A stretch of DNA of 64,000 nucleotides from a virus, in the IMG/VR virus record IMGVR_UViG_3300045988_153208, one strand, 5' to 3'. The notes below the pieces were generated by a model, which worked only from the letters and a program-made list of their open reading frames with translations, did not search any database and was not told where the DNA came from. A program made the translations under genes and the position numbers. The stretch's first letter is position 1; each line of letters starts with the position of its first letter. Positions 16,661-27,688 of the stretch are shown here, piece after piece.

Positions 16661-16857
16661 ACGGCCGTCGCCAAACAGGTAAGGCACAGGACTTTCGAGA
16701 AATCGTTTAAATGGGTTATGTCATGTGATGGGTTAAGTAGCATAATATAAGTTCTGTTAGTAGGACGCCAACCGGAATGATTGGTAGTATGAGTGCAAGT
16801 CTCATTTTCTCGCCCTGACTCCTGCATCTGCTGGTTCGAGTCCAGCCGGCCGTGCCA
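16661..16857 (+). tRNA. Split tRNA-Gln(CTG): exon 1 16661-16693, exon 2 16815-16857, 121-nt ORF-less intervening sequence after U33
   Basis: ACGGCCG-TC-GCC-AAACAGGTAA-GGC-A-CAGGA-CT | CTGAC-TCCTG-CATCT-GCTGG-TTCGAGT-CCAGC-CGGCCGT-G-CCA; D-arm and G73 match bacterial tRNA-Gln. Confidence 0.55.
16694..16814 (+). other. Non-canonical tRNA intervening sequence (too short for group I); 3' end forms T-arm-like hairpin ATGAG-TGCAAGT-CTCAT followed by TTTCTCG pairing with intron 5' CGAGAAA
   Basis: Same terminal architecture as the tRNA-Lys intron at 26719-27455. Confidence 0.45.
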
Positions 16858-16984
16858 CCGGAGTTCTGCTAAATCATATATTTAATTAAGAATTTGCTGC
16901 TCCGAACGAATATATGAGGATTTAAAAAATGGGTCTAGATGACGCAGATAACCCGCTCCGGACCAAAAATAAGTGAGGAAAATA

Positions 16985-17173
16985 ATGTATATTTGTCCAA
17001 TTTGTAATATAGGATTTTCAACACAAGAAGGTATAGCAAAACATCTTTTAAATTGTTTTAGAGAACAAAATCCATATTATCCATCAAAACCCGCTCCTCG
17101 TAGCGAAGATATTAACACAATGGAAATAAATGATGATGTAATGAATTTTTTTAATTCATTTAAACAGAGGTAA
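16985..17173 (+). CDS. Small zinc-finger protein (C2H2-like)
   Basis: MYICPICNIGFSTQEGIAKHLLNC. Confidence 0.4.
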   Translation: MYICPICNIGFSTQEGIAKHLLNCFREQNPYYPSKPAPRSEDINTMEINDDVMNFFNSFKQR

Positions 17174-17175
17174 AA

Positions 17176-17526
17176 ATGGAAGAAGTCGCGGTCAAAACTC
17201 ATTTAATTATCACTGATATTCATGAAGAATATCATATGAATTGGTGTGGTAAAATCTTTAACACAAATCCTAAATTGAAAAATGGTTTACCTGTTTTTAC
17301 AATTATCGGTAGTCGTGGTCGAATGGAAATTAGCACGATTGATATGAATCAATTGGAAAAATGTGCTAAATCCTTAACTTATCCGCGAGGTCGTTCTGCT
17401 GTTTCTAAAGATAGTTCTCAAATCTATATCCAAGAGGTAGATGGAAATGAAAAATTATTGGGCGTTTTAACTCATAAGCATATCAAGAGTTATGCTCCAA
17501 TGTATGATAAAGTAGGTTTTAGATAA
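17176..17526 (+). CDS. Hypothetical protein (116 aa)
   Basis: ORF track. Confidence 0.45.
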   Translation: MEEVAVKTHLIITDIHEEYHMNWCGKIFNTNPKLKNGLPVFTIIGSRGRMEISTIDMNQLEKCAKSLTYPRGRSAVSKDSSQIYIQEVDGNEKLLGVLTHKHIKSYAPMYDKVGFR

Positions 17527-17700
17527 GGAGAGTAATATGAATTTTCGCACCAAGGAACATTACGAGTATCGTATTGCAAAACTGAAGGCTAAGGGTGAGG
17601 TTATTAATGCCAATCTAATTCGTAAAGTTGAACGTAAATTGCGTAATATGAAATAATTTGACATTTAAAAAAAAATATTATATAATAAATATATAAAGTA

Positions 17701-17760
17701 AAGGCTTATCCAGCAAATTTTAGGAATGAAGATTCAACTTGGGTTGTTCATTAGAGCCTT
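17701..17760 (+). ncRNA. tRNA-leader element (family member B) immediately upstream of suppressor tRNA
   Basis: AAGGCTT-AT-CCAG-CAAATTTTAGG...AGAGCCTT. Confidence 0.4.
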
Positions 17761-17769
17761 GTCAGACAT

Positions 17770-17840
17770 TCCGGCTTGGAGTAATGGTAGCCCGCCTGAC
17801 TCTAAATCAGGTCGCCTCGGTTCGAATCCGAGAGCCGGTG
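17770..17840 (+). tRNA. Amber suppressor tRNA(CUA), Gln-like (reads TAG)
   Basis: Anticodon stem CCTGA/TCAGG loop CTCTAAA (anticodon CTA); T-arm CTCGG-TTCGAAT-CCGAG; acceptor TCCGGCT/AGCCGGT with weak 1-72 pair and G73 as in tRNA-Gln; loop differs from the tRNA-Gln(CUG) CUCUGAC by one base. Confidence 0.7.
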
Positions 17841-17922
17841 CGGCATTAAGTAAGAAACCTCCCCGTGGTAATGCTGGTTAATACTAATTCTTACAAATTT
17901 AATAAGAAGGAGTCATTTAGTT

Positions 17923-18549
17923 ATGGCATACATTTATTAGATTACCAATGATATAAATTAGAAAATTTATATCGGTAAAACTGAATTTTCTATTGAAAAA
18001 CGATTTAAAGAGCATTGTTATGATGCATTTAGAGCGAATAATGAAAAACGTCCATTATATAATGCTATGCGAAAATATGGAGTTGAGCATTTTCATATTG
18101 AATTGATTGAAGAAACTGATAATCCAGAAGAAAGAGAAATCTATTGGATTGAGAAAAAACAATCATTCAAAAATGGATATAACGCCACAATTGGTGGTGA
18201 TGGGCGCAAATATATTGATTATCAATTAGTAATTAATACTTATATGATTGTTAAAAACGCCACTGAGGTCGCTCGGATGTTAAATATTCATCCTGATAGT
18301 GTGTATCATATTTTAAAAGAATATGATATTGATATAAATACTCCTAATAAATTTTTATATGGTAAAAATTGTGGAATGTTTAAAAATGGTGTATTAATTC
18401 AATCATTTTCAACTATTAAGGATGGTGCTCGTTATATAAGTGATAATAAAATTTCTAAAGATACTATGGGTGGAATTAGTTCTCATATTAGCCAAGTATG
18501 TAATGGTAAACGTAAGAGTGCTTATGGGTATGTTTGGAAATTTATTTAA
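17923..18549 (+). CDS. GIY-YIG homing endonuclease (2 in-frame TAGs)
   Basis: MAYIY-ITNDIN-KIYIGKTEFSIEKRFKEHC...YNATIGGDG; ORF 18067-18549 extended upstream. Confidence 0.65.
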
Positions 18550-18785
18550 TATAAAATTTATCTTATAGTGTAATTAGCACGACATTTGTAAGTTAAGGTT
18601 TAATCCTTATAAGATAGCCAAAGCGAAGCAATATGTATACAAACCATTGATAAGTCTTCGCTGGATGGAATGTAGGGTTCGAAGTGCCCATCATTTAAAG
18701 AGTAGTCTGCGGTCGCGAGGTAGATTTTTGGTCGAGGGACACACCATCAAGGTTCTCGATTTACCTTAAACAAAATCGAATATTT

Positions 18786-18872
18786 GGGTCGGTAGAGCGT
18801 AGTTGGTACCGCACCGGACTGTAAATCCGGTTCCTCTGGACAGCGGTGGTTCGAGTCCACCCCGGCCCACCA
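18786..18872 (+). tRNA. tRNA-Tyr(GTA), class II
   Basis: GGGTCGG/CCGGCCC, stem CCGGA/TCCGG loop CTGTAAA, long variable arm, T-arm GGTGG-TTCGAGT-CCACC, A-CCA. Confidence 0.75.
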
Positions 18873-26036: not shown

Positions 26037-26037
26037 T

Positions 26038-26085
26038 TTGACATTTTCAAAAAATTTTTGTATAATATATATAGAAAGTTAAAGA
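26038..26085 (+). promoter_or_regulatory. Conserved promoter motif copy
   Basis: TTGACA 26038-26043, TATAAT 26061-26066. Confidence 0.5.
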
Positions 26086-26171
26086 ACTTTCAAAAGCCTT
26101 TTCTTTAAATCCCTATCCCCAAAGGTAAGACTGTTTGGCATTTTCAACTTCATAAAGAAAATGCTTTAATT

Positions 26172-26247
26172 GCAGGATTGGTGTTAGTGGCTAGCATATC
26201 TGCCTTCCAAGCAGACGGGGCCAGTTCGAGTCTGGTATCTTGCTCCA
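26172..26247 (+). tRNA. tRNA-Gly(TCC)
   Basis: GCAGGAT/ATCTTGC, stem TCTGC/GCAGA loop CTTCCAA, T-arm GCCAG-TTCGAGT-CTGGT, T-CCA. Confidence 0.75.
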
Positions 26248-26282
26248 TTCCCTTTAATGGGATTGTTCATATAATATTGAGA

Positions 26283-26385
26283 GCCGTGCAGCAAATTTTT
26301 ATTAGAAAGTTATTTCTACTAAAAAAAGGATAATGCTATAATTAATAGCTCCATTTACGGTTCATGAAGAGTTATCTAAGTGTAG
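26283..26385 (+). ncRNA. tRNA-leader family element (member G)
   Basis: GAGCCGT-G-CAGCAAATTTTT ... ACGGTTC. Confidence 0.3.
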
Positions 26386-26556
26386 ATGCGATGATGGGGC
26401 TCTCGAAAATTACCATTGTCAATTTGAGAACGATAATGTTTAATGAGCCTTTTTTTACTTGCCTTCTTAGGAGGTCATAGCCGGTAGGAATGTGGCGATT
26501 ATCGACAAAACATTCGAAAGCAATGAAGAACGGCAGGTTATTTATTGAATAGGTAA

Positions 26557-26640
26557 AGGCACAAACAGCAATTATTAGATGATTATAATTAATGCTAGAA
26601 ATTTTTAAATCAACGTGCCTTGTTTTTTTTTCTCACGCGT
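26557..26640 (+). ncRNA. tRNA-leader family element (member F)
   Basis: AAGGCAC-AA-ACAG-CAATTATTAG...GTGCCTTGTTTTTTTTT. Confidence 0.35.
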
Positions 26641-26718
26641 ATTTCCAATTTTTTTCCAGTTTTGGTAAATTTTTTCCATCAATATGCTCCGTTAGCTCAG
26701 TGGTAGAGCAGTAGCCTT

Positions 26719-27455
26719 GGTGGAATCGTATAATGAAATACAATTCCGAACTCGGTCAAAATGAATTAATGAATTTAGTTAAGGTTTTAAATAACAGTGA
26801 AAGGAGCTGATTATTTACGGCTAAAACTAATTCAGAAAATGTATGTAATTTTGTAAAAAACAGAAAAACAAATTTAATTTCATTATTTCATAATAAATGT
26901 TGTATTTGTGGATTTGATAAATTTCAAGAAGCATTAGAATTTCATCACGTTGACCCTTCTTAGAAAGAATTATCATTGTCTTCAAATGTAATGGTATCAT
27001 TAGAACGACAAATCAATGAAGCAAAAAAATGTATTCTTGTTTGTGCTAATTGTCATCGAGGAATTCATGCAGGGTACTATAAAGTACCAGACAATTATGA
27101 ATCTTTATTTGATGAATAGCAGGCTCAATATTTATTAGAAAAAAATCAAGAAATTAAAGAAGGTAAAAAACATTATTGTAAATCTTGTGGCAAATTATTA
27201 AATAATAATTCAATTTATTGTTTAGAATGTAGCCATAAAATTTAGAGAGTGGCAGAACGTCCCACTCGACAAGAATTAAAGAATTTAATTCGTAATTAGC
27301 CATTTACTCAAATTGCTAAAAAATACAATGTTTCTGACAATGCTATTCGTAAATGGTGTATTTGTGAAAAATTACCTACTAAAAAAAGTTTTATTAATTC
27401 ATTGACTGACGAACAATGGGAAGAGATATGAGTTCAAATCTCATTTCCACCTCCA
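26719..27455 (+). mobile_element. Non-canonical tRNA intron with tRNA-like terminal minihelix: 5' GGTGGAA pairs with 3' ATGAG-TTCAAAT-CTCAT-TTCCACC-T-CCA; carries an HNH gene
   Basis: Intron starts exactly at the first base of a 7-bp acceptor-like stem and ends with discriminator + CCA; no omega-G. Confidence 0.45.
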
Positions 27456-27459
27456 TTAA
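26812..27459 (+). CDS. HNH endonuclease with C-terminal DNA-binding region (5 in-frame TAGs); start codon unclear; stop TAA overlaps the 3' junction
   Basis: ...CCICGFDKFQEALEFHHVDPS-KELSLSSN...ILVCANCHRGIH... Confidence 0.5.
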
Positions 27460-27688
27460 GCTATTGGTCCGGGGTTCAAATCCCCGACGGGGCACCATAG
27501 GTGAATACGGCACCTAACCCCTTTCAATTTGGAAAATTTGAGACGACAATTCATATATCAACGTTGATAACGGTAAGAAGGTCTATCAATCTTGAAAAAG
27601 ATTAAGGGTTGTGCATATCTTCCCTGATTAGATATATGAAGTGGGGCAACGGGAGGCCCGCCCACTATAATATCGGGCCCTCCACCAT

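Follow-up and report, generated by a model that had tools for sequence, protein, structure and literature searches.

Inserts shaped like tRNAs in the anticodon loops of phage tRNA genes: a possible kind of non-self-splicing tRNA intron

Introduction

Introns lying in or next to the anticodon loop of transfer RNA (tRNA) genes have been described as group I introns that carry homing endonucleases (in cyanobacterial tRNA-Leu(UAA) and in phages), and as the archaeal and eukaryal introns handled by EndA or TSEN together with RtcB or Trl1. We know of no enzymatic tRNA-splicing pathway in bacterial hosts. The closest described system is that of the Lak megaphages, whose tRNAs were reported to contain "enigmatic introns", one of which "itself may encode a tRNA" (Devoto et al. 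2019, Nat Microbiol, PMC6784885). Rfam held no match for those introns, and the paper neither defined a family or a rule for the boundaries nor gave a mechanism (PMC6784885). Here we describe three inserts that interrupt the anticodon loops of a tRNA-Asn, a tRNA-Gln and a tRNA-Lys gene in a stretch of 64,000 nucleotides (nt) from the IMG/VR virus record IMGVR_UViG_3300045988_153208, referred to below as the window; all positions are those of the whole window. The inserts are themselves shaped like tRNAs, and they may represent a kind of tRNA intron that is not self-splicing and that was previously only glimpsed.

Like the Lak introns, the inserts lie in anticodon loops of stop-codon-recoded gut phages and occur as alleles with and without the intron. 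The two differ in build. In the Lak introns a hairpin leader of ~28 nt (TACA-hairpin-ATTAAA) precedes the inner module, which has no CCA and ends at or near the discriminator (Table S6, PMC6784885), whereas the window inserts begin directly with the acceptor strand, have no leader and end in CCA or CCT. Of the Lak introns that are listed (79–114 nt and related longer ones), none is apparently long enough to hold an open reading frame (ORF) for an endonuclease. Judged by these sequences, window inserts and Lak introns are related in idea but different in architecture. An initial annotation of the window had proposed a new class of introns; this novelty is partly anticipated by the Lak paper, the only one that was found in the openly accessible literature on tRNA-like or tRNA-mimicking introns and on RNase P-dependent splicing.

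With group I introns the inserts share the anticodon-loop target, the HNH or GIY-YIG passengers and the presence/absence polymorphism, and the inserts of two contigs, L081 and L227, occupy even the same U34|A35 site of tRNA-Leu(UAA) (L-numbers are our labels for the phage, genome-assembly and metagenome contigs analysed). The inserts differ in having neither a ribozyme core nor a terminal G and in going down to 55 nt. Their removal would have to depend on proteins or on RNase P, not on self-splicing. The likeness to archaeal and eukaryal introns lies in the proposed cut and re-ligation and in the place in or next to the anticodon loop, but the inserts have no bulge-helix-bulge; recognition would fall to a tRNA mimic inside the intron and not to the junction of exon and intron or to the mature domain, and the predicted ends are a 3'-OH and a 5'-phosphate.

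Embedded tRNA shapes are known as cutting signals for RNase P (5') and RNase Z (3') in MALAT1 mascRNA and in mitochondrial 'tRNA punctuation'. There the flanks are not rejoined, whereas the flanks of the inserts are tRNA halves that need ligation. In phage T4, the kinase/phosphatase Pnkp and the RNA ligase Rnl1 reseal the anticodon-loop break in tRNA-Lys cleaved by PrrC. An analogous enzyme set is encoded in the window, but the T4 break is damage inflicted by the host and the one proposed here is a programmed step; moreover, the window ligase is DRB0094-like, not Rnl1-like. The ends of the endonuclease-bearing inserts also pair into a CCA-ended acceptor/T-arm domain around an ORF, as in transfer-messenger RNA (tmRNA). 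The analogy is one of shape only: the inserts have no homology to tmRNA, no tag-peptide ORF and no pseudoknots, and the Rfam tmRNA match (10.5 bits at 27418–27452) is at chance level.

Results

When ARAGORN was run with introns allowed, five interrupted tRNAs were reported in the window, at 3763–4270, 14872–15707, 16661–16857, 24847–25701 and 26686–27497. Three of these, labelled His, Glu and Thr in that run, were found to be genes for tRNA-Asn(GUU) (3763–4270), tRNA-Gln(UUG) (16661–16857) and tRNA-Lys(UUU) (26686–27497), respectively. All three genes and their parts lie on the plus strand. The Gln and Lys genes, with inserts of 121 and 737 nt, are those singled out in the initial annotation, and ARAGORN recovered both. 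One rule describes the three inserts. Base 1 of the insert opens the 5' strand of an acceptor-like helix of 7 base pairs (bp), which is followed by a D-arm; at the other end stand a 5-bp T-stem with a 7-nt T-loop, the acceptor 3' strand, N73 and CCA (CCT in Gln). After in silico removal of 3797–4229, 16696–16816 and 26719–27455, ARAGORN read the products as tRNA-Asn(GUU), tRNA-Gln(UUG) and tRNA-Lys(UUU), with the anticodons as predicted. The exon–exon junctions after splicing are GTAGCCTT|TTAAGCTAT for Lys, CAGGACTTT|GACTCCTG for Gln and TTCGGCTGT|TAACCGAA for Asn.

The tRNA-Lys(UUU) gene (5' exon 26686–26718, 3' exon 27456–27497) contains the 737-nt insert at 26719–27455. This begins with the acceptor 5' strand GGTGGAA (26719–26725) and the D-arm GTAT-AATGAA-ATAC (26728–26741), and ends with the T-arm (27428–27444), the acceptor 3' strand TTCCACC (27445–27451) and the tail T-CCA (27452–27455). 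The HNH gene that had been placed in this insert was found as a reading frame at 26811–27431 (plus strand), with four in-frame TAG codons and a TGA stop within the T-arm. Its Pfam HNH match is weak, and its product can be aligned with other insert-borne HNH proteins. The first in-frame ATG is at 26991, with none upstream of the HNH motif, and a good AAAGGAG site is present at 26801–26807; the frame may use a non-canonical start or may be decaying.

The tRNA-Gln(UUG) gene (5' exon 16661–16695, 3' exon 16817–16857) carries an ORF-less insert of 121 nt at 16696–16816, and its Rfam tRNA match (43.1 bits) spans the insert. The acceptor 5' strand CGAGAAA (16696–16702), the T-arm ATGAG TGCAAGT CTCAT (16789–16805), the acceptor 3' strand TTTCTCG (16806–16812) and the tail C-CCT (16813–16816) give the junctions CTTT|CGAGAAA...TTTCTCG-C-CCT|GAC, where a shift of 1 base to the 5' side yields the same product. 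The shared ending of the Gln and Lys inserts that was noted initially, ATGAG-N7-CTCAT followed by a 7-nt strand that pairs with insert nt 1–7, is read directly in both. The Gln insert is also present in the relatives L001 and L099; the discriminator is T in L099 and C in the window. The anticodon had been given as CUG. It is UUG, a call backed by a more distant, uninterrupted tRNA-Gln(UUG) in L252 with an identical anticodon arm.

In the tRNA-Asn(GUU) gene (5' exon 3763–3796; 3' exon 4230–4270, ending in GCCA; found by ARAGORN -i), the insert of 433 nt lies at 3797–4229. Its acceptor 5' strand is GTCAGAT (3797–3803), its T-arm GTCAG TTCAACC CTGAC (4202–4218), its acceptor 3' strand ATTTGAC (4219–4225) and its tail C-CCA (4226–4229); the acceptor-like helix GTCAGAT/ATTTGAC pairs with one G-U. 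The junctions are CTGT|GTCAGAT...GTCAG-TTCAACC-CTGAC-ATTTGAC-C-CCA|TAA, and they cannot be shifted because the first and last bases of the insert differ from the flanking bases. An HNH endonuclease ORF (3871–4224, plus strand) with one in-frame TAG shares bases with both the T-arm and the acceptor 3' strand; translated with TAG as a sense codon, it gave weak Pfam HNH and AI2M-like_HNH matches (E ~1e-3). This gene had been taken for a tRNA(CAU) with an extra 7-nt tail before the junction. Spliced in silico by the common rule, it was called tRNA-Asn gtt by ARAGORN, and a more distant, uninterrupted tRNA-Asn in L130, whose anticodon arm is identical, supports GUU. No extra tail exists, since the rule is fully followed with C-CCA at the junction. 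The common split at U33|C34 that had been suggested was also not found: Lys is split at 34|35, and Gln and Asn at 35|36.

In the window, 17 amino acids are covered by uninterrupted tRNAs. Those missing are exactly Lys, Gln and Asn, that is, the amino acids of the three interrupted genes.

The boundaries of the Lys insert are fixed INDEPENDENTLY of any folding, by uninterrupted alleles. In three contigs (L099, L283 and L287) the tRNA-Lys(UUU) gene is uninterrupted and agrees with the spliced window gene in every base. Compared with the window over flanks of 400 nt, they are collinear at 95–99% identity with a single gap of exactly 26719–27455, and the T-CCA lies exactly at the 3' junction, as had been annotated. 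These boundaries cannot slide because the insert starts with G and ends with A, and the flanking bases are both T. The mobile unit therefore corresponds exactly to a "tRNA" that runs from +1 to A76. An independent second case was provided by a 66-nt insert in the tRNA-Glu(UUC) of L245, for which L138 and L203 have uninterrupted alleles. The presence of HNH ORFs (in the Asn and Lys inserts) and of clean presence/absence polymorphisms (for Lys and Glu), both being features of mobile introns with homing endonucleases, demonstrates mobility at the DNA level, where the element would spread into uninterrupted alleles by endonuclease-driven homing. Together with the family described below, this establishes the inserts as endonuclease-mobilised, tRNA-mimicking elements in their architecture, family, exact boundaries and mobility.

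Further members were sought by four scans, using the T-arm motif, an alignment of insert-borne HNH proteins, a D-arm/T-loop pattern and the spliced Lys anticodon arm. Candidates were kept if a T-arm and a 7-bp closing helix were present and if ARAGORN accepted the splice product and placed its anticodon in register; the search filter included the T-loop pattern T.C. In all, 23 distinct inserts of the same shape were obtained from phage, genome-assembly and metagenome contigs, in 11 tRNA species: Lys(UUU), Gln(UUG), Asn(GUU), Asp(GUC), Glu(UUC), Gly(UCC), Ile(GAU), Ile(UAU), Leu(UAA), Leu(CAA) and Pro(UGG). Metagenome contigs contained the Gly insert in two more copies. The inserts are placed at 34|35, 35|36 or 36|37. 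ORF-less inserts measure 55, 59, 62, 66–70, 77, 121 and 135 nt, and those with an endonuclease ORF 433, 734, 737, 844 and 854 nt; the ORFs are of the HNH type where translated (Asn, Lys and L113).

The bare T-arm pattern ATGAGTNCAANTCTCAT mainly hit ordinary tRNA T-arms in viral contigs, and led to L001, L055, L081, L099 and L113. The D-arm/T-loop scans added three members in two genome-assembly contigs and two members among 120 metagenome contigs. Members of the family seem to cluster in phage contigs from gut and rumen. L347, with members at 3765–3834 and 4859–5712, is binned into a yak-rumen 'Eubacterium' assembly, and L350, with a member at 7189–7257 that splits tRNA-Lys at 35|36 and not at 34|35, into a rabbit-gut 'Methanobrevibacter' assembly; both are probably phage contigs. 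A covariance model of the family (R1) was rejected as an insert detector, as real tRNAs score equally high, and was kept only for spotting free-standing modules. We also considered that the 3'-end format of an insert might track the tRNA format of its phage. This fits the window clade versus Lak but fails in four of the 23 members, and was dropped as a rule.

In a register control, the length of the 3' tail was varied from 0 to 8 and the 5' offset from -2 to +2 over 2,458 raw candidates from ~2.3 Mb. ARAGORN-validated products numbered 13–27 per cell where tail and offset added up to 4, and 0–2 in the other cells. The insert geometry is thus not due to chance. The control fixes the length removed only; the cut sites rest on the uninterrupted alleles and on isotype logic, for example that long-variable-arm tRNAs come out as Leu.

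When the ORF-less members were aligned, the 5' half was seen to consist of the 7-bp acceptor, U8 (21 of the 23 members), A9 and a 4-bp D-stem with a loop of 5–7 nt, the D-arm consensus being TAGTTTAA..AAAC. The third arm is a stub hairpin of 3–7 bp with a loop of 4–6 nt, set between one and two bases; it is absent in members of 59 nt (L245) and 55 nt (L173). In the large members the endonuclease ORF takes the place of the stub, at the anticodon-arm position. In the 3' half, the T-arm, with loops such as TTCAAAT and TGCAAAT, is followed by the acceptor 3' strand, by N73, which is A in 14/23, and by CCA (17/23; CC in 21/23). At the junctions, U occupies N-1 in 16/23 members (a pyrimidine does so in 22/23), and G occupies +1 in 16/23. 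The inserts had been described as minihelices of acceptor and T-arm; this module and both junctions hold throughout the family, but with U8 and the D-arm the inserts are mimics of a full L-shaped tRNA.

The minihelix pairing recurs in homologous phages, as the initial annotation required, with compensatory changes across 13 ORF-less inserts: all seven acceptor pairs and three of the five T-stem pairs are changed on both sides. Pairing is found in 98.5% of the cells, a percentage inflated by the use of acceptor and T-arm pairing (the D-arm was not used) as selection criteria, which lessens its weight for the reading preferred below. None of 500 shuffles reached the observed values, and slid partners paired at 40–55%. 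A Lys series illustrates how the ORF takes the place of the stub: L055 (68 nt, ORF-less), L178 (734 nt) and the window (737 nt) have inserts at the same position with compensating acceptor sequences. The minimum-free-energy fold of the whole L138 precursor (a tRNA-Gly precursor of 145 nt) is one cloverleaf nested in another. Single-sequence folding of the Gln precursor and insert gave energies no better than those of shuffles (z +0.5 to +0.7), and therefore thermodynamics alone is uninformative. The occurrence across many contigs of ORF-less derivatives that keep the fold argues for selection on the RNA shape itself.

The described intron types were compared with the inserts. In agreement with the initial annotation, a group I intron was rejected: the ORF-less members, at 55–135 nt, are too small (versus ~200 nt or more for a group I intron lacking an ORF), the window inserts have no terminal G, and the core finds no match. 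The last insert base is A in Asn and Lys and T in Gln, so the group I omega-G is absent from the window inserts, and Rfam Intron_gpI gave no match at E up to 10 for 3755–4280, 16650–16865 and 26680–27505. Moreover, the 5' exon ends in C or A in seven of the 23 members, versus the U, paired with G in P1, expected for group I. No self-cleaving ribozyme model of Rfam matched the inserts at gathering or lax thresholds with these short inputs. A bulge-helix-bulge intron was rejected since no 4-bp helix between two bulges can be read from the sequence at the junctions; the layout there is a 5-bp anticodon stem, 3–5 unpaired nt, the 7-bp inner helix and 4 + (2–4) unpaired nt on the 3' side. A nested decoding tRNA was rejected as well, the third arm being a short stub or absent where a decoding tRNA has a 5-bp stem and a 7-nt loop with U33. 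Standard ARAGORN called none of 14 inner elements a tRNA, and hence the inner elements have no anticodon loop. The tRNA-shaped inserts are outside every described intron class.

The tRNA-Leu(UAA) gene at 24847–25701 has an insert of ~773 nt at the classic U34|A35 site, with a G end and an HNH ORF (25100–25546). When this region was searched alone, in the same way as the three inserts, Rfam Intron_gpI matched at 25458–25628, across the conserved core (23.6 bits, E 0.0011). This insert is probably a group I intron, in which case two unrelated intron types occur in one tRNA array.

Two tRNA-shaped modules stand outside tRNA genes, both on the plus strand. The one at 15637–15707 has a D-arm TAGTTTAA..AAAC, a 7-bp stub with a tetraloop, a T-arm and a G-CCA end; it scored 37.9 bits with R1, and ARAGORN called it 'tRNA-???' with a 2-nt anticodon. 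It lies directly 3' of an HNH ORF (14958–15632) that is homologous to the Lys-insert ORF by protein alignment. The other, of ~63 nt (approximately 18558–18620), also ends in G-CCA (R1 25.8 bits, E 0.004) and lies directly 3' of a GIY-YIG ORF (17923–18549, Pfam E 2e-11), so that endonuclease and module form a second cassette of this kind that is not part of a tRNA gene. Elsewhere, many homologous HNH genes have a T-arm, an acceptor strand and CCA within ~50–70 nt downstream. At 14872–14902 an alternative acceptor 5' strand and D-arm (GTCCCGT TA GTCC...GGAC) pairs with the same 3' strand as the module at 15637–15707, and the entire 14872–15707 is read by ARAGORN -i as an interrupted 'tRNA-Thr'.

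A candidate ATP-dependent RNA ligase of the kind that seals 3'-OH and 5'-phosphate ends is encoded at 40480–41865 (plus strand), with a putative role in rejoining exons. Its Pfam RNA_ligase match (21.1 bits, E 3.6e-4) is below the curated cut-off of 27, as is that to NCBIfam TIGR02306 (DRB0094-type RNA ligase; 36.7 bits, cut-off 151, E 2e-9); T4 Rnl2 gave E 0.4. The motifs KMHG, EVVG, EGVVVR and KHK are visible by eye, and the protein is probably a ligase of a divergent subfamily. Also on the plus strand are a polynucleotide-kinase-like P-loop kinase (43076–43582; Pfam AAA_33, E 5e-24) and a calcineurin-like phosphoesterase (43582–44337; Pfam Metallophos_2, E 3e-10), which might heal RNA ends and whose link with the inserts is likewise putative. 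No RNase Z, EndA or RtcB-like protein was recognised among the ~50 window ORFs.

Discussion

Our best reading, which we place just short of an even chance, is that the tRNA-mimicking inserts are excised by RNase P and by a 3' nuclease acting after the CCA, and that the exons are ligated. RNase P would recognise the inner acceptor/T-arm/CCA module and cut at its +1, which is the 5' junction, leaving the 5' exon with a 3'-OH. A second endonuclease would cut after the inner CCA, at the 3' junction; this could be a CCA-tolerant enzyme of the RNase Z/BN type or a phage nuclease, for which the PIN-PhoH protein encoded at 48368–49621 is a candidate. The exon halves would remain paired through the arms of the outer tRNA (acceptor, D and T), and the ligase of 40480–41865 would seal them across the anticodon loop, possibly after end healing by the neighbouring kinase and phosphoesterase. 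We propose tentatively, and with rather less than even confidence, that tRNA splicing would thereby have a third form, the first in bacteria or phages to do without a ribozyme intron, using RNase P, a CCA-end nuclease and a phage ligase. Endonucleases would then have taken up a tRNA disguise as an alternative to group I introns, and so have entered tRNA genes without harming them.

The substrate features recognised by bacterial RNase P are the acceptor and T stems, stacked on one another, and the elbow of the T and D loops, together with the 3' NCCA, which can pair with the P15 loop of the ribozyme. The enzyme favours U at -1 and G at +1, its cut yields a 3'-OH and a 5'-phosphate, and it can dispense with the anticodon arm. 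The inserts have the 7 + 5 bp stack in 23/23, T.CAA-like T-loops, a D-arm with U8, A14 and a loop G, and CCA in 17/23, and the 5' junction is +1 in the two cases fixed by alleles. Because the features used by RNase P are kept, the dispensable arm is lost and the junction coincides with +1, a cut by RNase P at the 5' junction is predicted as the most economical reading. Removal of the inserts as such is supported indirectly by three features of the sequences: the fold with its compensatory changes in ORF-less copies, the exons of the host tRNAs, which are intact and compensated between diverged carriers, and the fact that the interrupted genes are the only tRNAs for Lys, Gln and Asn in the set. 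In the Lak Thr(UGU) intron, whose boundary was corrected by the authors with the help of uninterrupted alleles (PMC6784885), the 3' junction lies after the discriminator, which is the RNase Z site, and the Lak tRNA genes have no encoded CCA (Table S6, PMC6784885). The position of this junction lends weight to the idea that the 3' junction is set by the processing of tRNA 3' ends. Under a junction-after-discriminator rule several Lak isotype calls, such as the short-variable-arm 'Tyr GTA', look doubtful.

A number of points weigh against excision by RNase P and a 3' nuclease. Every step at the RNA level, excision as well as ligation, is one that we infer. The in silico splicing test proves precise insertion and not excision; it is uninformative on the latter because a clean insertion without target duplication passes it automatically. 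The 3' cut is the weakest link, since the usual bacterial routes to a CCA end would either miss this site or degrade the 3' exon. The normal RNase Z cut lies after N73, and most RNase Z enzymes are inhibited by CCA; the Thermotoga RNase Z, and probably the E. coli RNase BN, can cut after CCA. We know of no general bacterial route for a precise endonucleolytic cut after an encoded CCA that spares the RNA on its 3' side. Where tRNA genes abut, as Ala|Thr do in this array, the CCA end of the upstream tRNA would arise directly from the RNase P cut at its downstream neighbour, but the nested inserts have no downstream RNase P substrate of this kind. Some inserts have tails other than CCA (CCT in Gln; CAA, TCA and, in L222, CCG in single members), and whereas 19 of the 23 host tRNAs encode CCA, the other four do not, though their inserts do. 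For the Lak introns, the ~28-nt leader means that RNase P and RNase Z alone cannot excise them.

The ligase adds to these doubts. Homologues with at least 60% identity occur in six insert-bearing contigs and equally in contigs with an uninterrupted tRNA-Lys; the enzyme is therefore clade-wide and not diagnostic of inserts, although they could make use of it. It may serve mainly in the repair of tRNAs. DRB0094-like ligases prefer nicks in duplexes, unlike T4 Rnl1, which is a specialist for the anticodon loop.

The free-standing modules bear on a different reading, in which the inserts are never removed and the tRNA is broken into useless halves. The module may have its origin as a processing or stability signal of endonuclease transcripts in tRNA operons; RNase P and 3' trimming would then release it, the element would be a gene-disrupting parasite, and the ORF-less copies would be relics. 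The modules that follow the HNH ORF (15637–15707) and the GIY-YIG ORF (18558–18620) are the main support for this, and the T-arm, acceptor strand and CCA near many HNH genes elsewhere, the accessory nature of phage tRNA genes and the blindness of the in silico splice test to the difference between clean insertion and splicing all agree with it. We nevertheless consider non-removal rather unlikely, as the 55–77-nt ORF-less inserts keep the full fold, with compensatory changes, in many contigs; exons are intact and compensated, for example between the tRNA-Lys of the window and that of L055, or where G-C has become G-U in the Gly anticodon stem; and the interrupted genes are the sole Lys, Gln and Asn tRNAs of an otherwise complete set. 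If the inserts are removed, a dedicated protein splicing endonuclease of the phage or the host, guided by the tRNA shape of the insert or by the junction, might do so with RNase P uninvolved, and the PIN-PhoH protein (48368–49621) is one candidate. Such an enzyme could leave a 2',3'-cyclic phosphate and a 5'-OH, to be healed by the kinase and phosphoesterase and sealed by the ligase, resembling archaeal and eukaryal enzymatic tRNA splicing or T4 anticodon-loop repair. This would account for the full heal-and-seal set that is encoded (kinase, phosphoesterase, ligase and an RlaP-like nucleotidyltransferase), the healing enzymes of which are superfluous after cuts by RNase P or RNase Z; it would also solve the problem of cutting after CCA and could accommodate the Lak leader. 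However, no EndA-like or other splicing endonuclease was recognised among the ~50 window ORFs, no bulge-helix-bulge can be drawn at the junctions, and the base-exact mature-tRNA boundaries, the kept CCA, U8 and the T-loop would go unexplained, which makes a dedicated endonuclease distinctly unlikely.

The conserved fold and CCA end would also suit an inner element that is itself the functional product, that is, a CCA-ended tRNA-like RNA acting as a decoy against defence nucleases that target tRNAs or as a chargeable minihelix, with the host tRNA as its scaffold. Lys(UUU), Gln(UUG), Glu(UUC), Asn and Asp, all among the hosts, are generally known as classic targets of anticodon nucleases. Yet the inner elements have no anticodon loop (ARAGORN, 0/14), their acceptor sequences differ freely without a shared identity element, and a presence/absence polymorphism coupled to endonuclease ORFs is left unexplained; we regard this possibility as very improbable. 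Self-splicing, by degenerate group I introns or by a small ribozyme, is hardly credible. It is true that group I introns with endonuclease ORFs are the known type in the anticodon loops of bacterial and phage tRNAs, and that a probable one is found in tRNA-Leu(UAA) of the same window. But the smallest members, of 55–70 nt, have tRNA-like helices only, the window inserts end in A or T and not in G, no Rfam intron or ribozyme model matched the short inputs at E up to 10, and the conserved unpaired bases are at tRNA tertiary positions only.

Were excision by RNase P and a 3' nuclease to prove true, RNase P and tRNA 3'-end processing would serve as a splicing apparatus, and bacterial viruses would hold an enzyme-dependent class of tRNA introns with an origin independent of the archaeal and eukaryal one. 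An explanation would also be at hand for the megaphage tRNA introns described as "enigmatic", homing endonucleases would have a second way, besides ribozymes, of living in essential RNA genes, and the spread of the element would be tied to phage RNA-repair ligases. The minimal modules of 55–70 nt are ready substrates for tests with RNase P and RNase Z, and could become designable excision tags. Standard tRNA finders overlook or mis-assign the interrupted genes, which distorts tRNA inventories and inferences on codon usage for recoded phages.

Other features of the window

The G+C content of the window is 33%. TAG is a sense codon in this phage: the total length of long ORFs rises by ~50% when TAG is read through, and a suppressor tRNA(CUA) is present at 17770–17841. 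In-frame TAGs are dense in the ORFs of 0–28 kb and almost absent at 29–45 kb. The tRNA array extends over 2.8–28 kb with 25 uninterrupted tRNA or tRNA-like genes, between which lie HNH and GIY-YIG homing-endonuclease ORFs. Megablast of 16000–28000 against GenBank phages gave no match, and thus no close relative there; the relatives are IMG/VR contigs of 128–198 kb from gut samples, with local identities of 85–99%.

Within the array, some tRNA genes abut with a spacer of 0 or 1 nt: Ala and Thr meet at 5295|5296 (5221–5370), and a similar pair is formed by Ser and His (9192–9359). An HNH ORF at 4463–4921, whose N-terminus is similar to that of the ORF in the Leu(UAA) intron, overlaps the start of tRNA-Leu(UAG) at 4912. 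A weak additional tRNA-like match (35.8 bits) was seen at 8108–8177, and a tRNA with the unusual anticodon AAA at 8321–8393.

An HDV-like ribozyme match (7119–7186, 34.4 bits) lies directly 3' of tRNA-Asp, and a twister-P1-like match (9082–9133, 50.7 bits, E 9e-9, below gathering) ~60 nt upstream of tRNA-Ser. From these matches, self-cleaving ribozymes seem to take part in the processing of the tRNA array. Such a role is described for the 'theta' ribozymes of recoded gut phages (PMC10879173).

A YrlA (Y-RNA-like) match was found at 11347–11477, just 5' of tRNA-Ile (36.6 bits, E 9e-5). A DUF2828/DUF7788 protein is encoded at 29058–30587 and a weak RlaP-like nucleotidyltransferase at 37796–38593. 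Taken together, these three matches hint at a possible phage RNA quality-control or repair module of the Ro/Y-RNA type.

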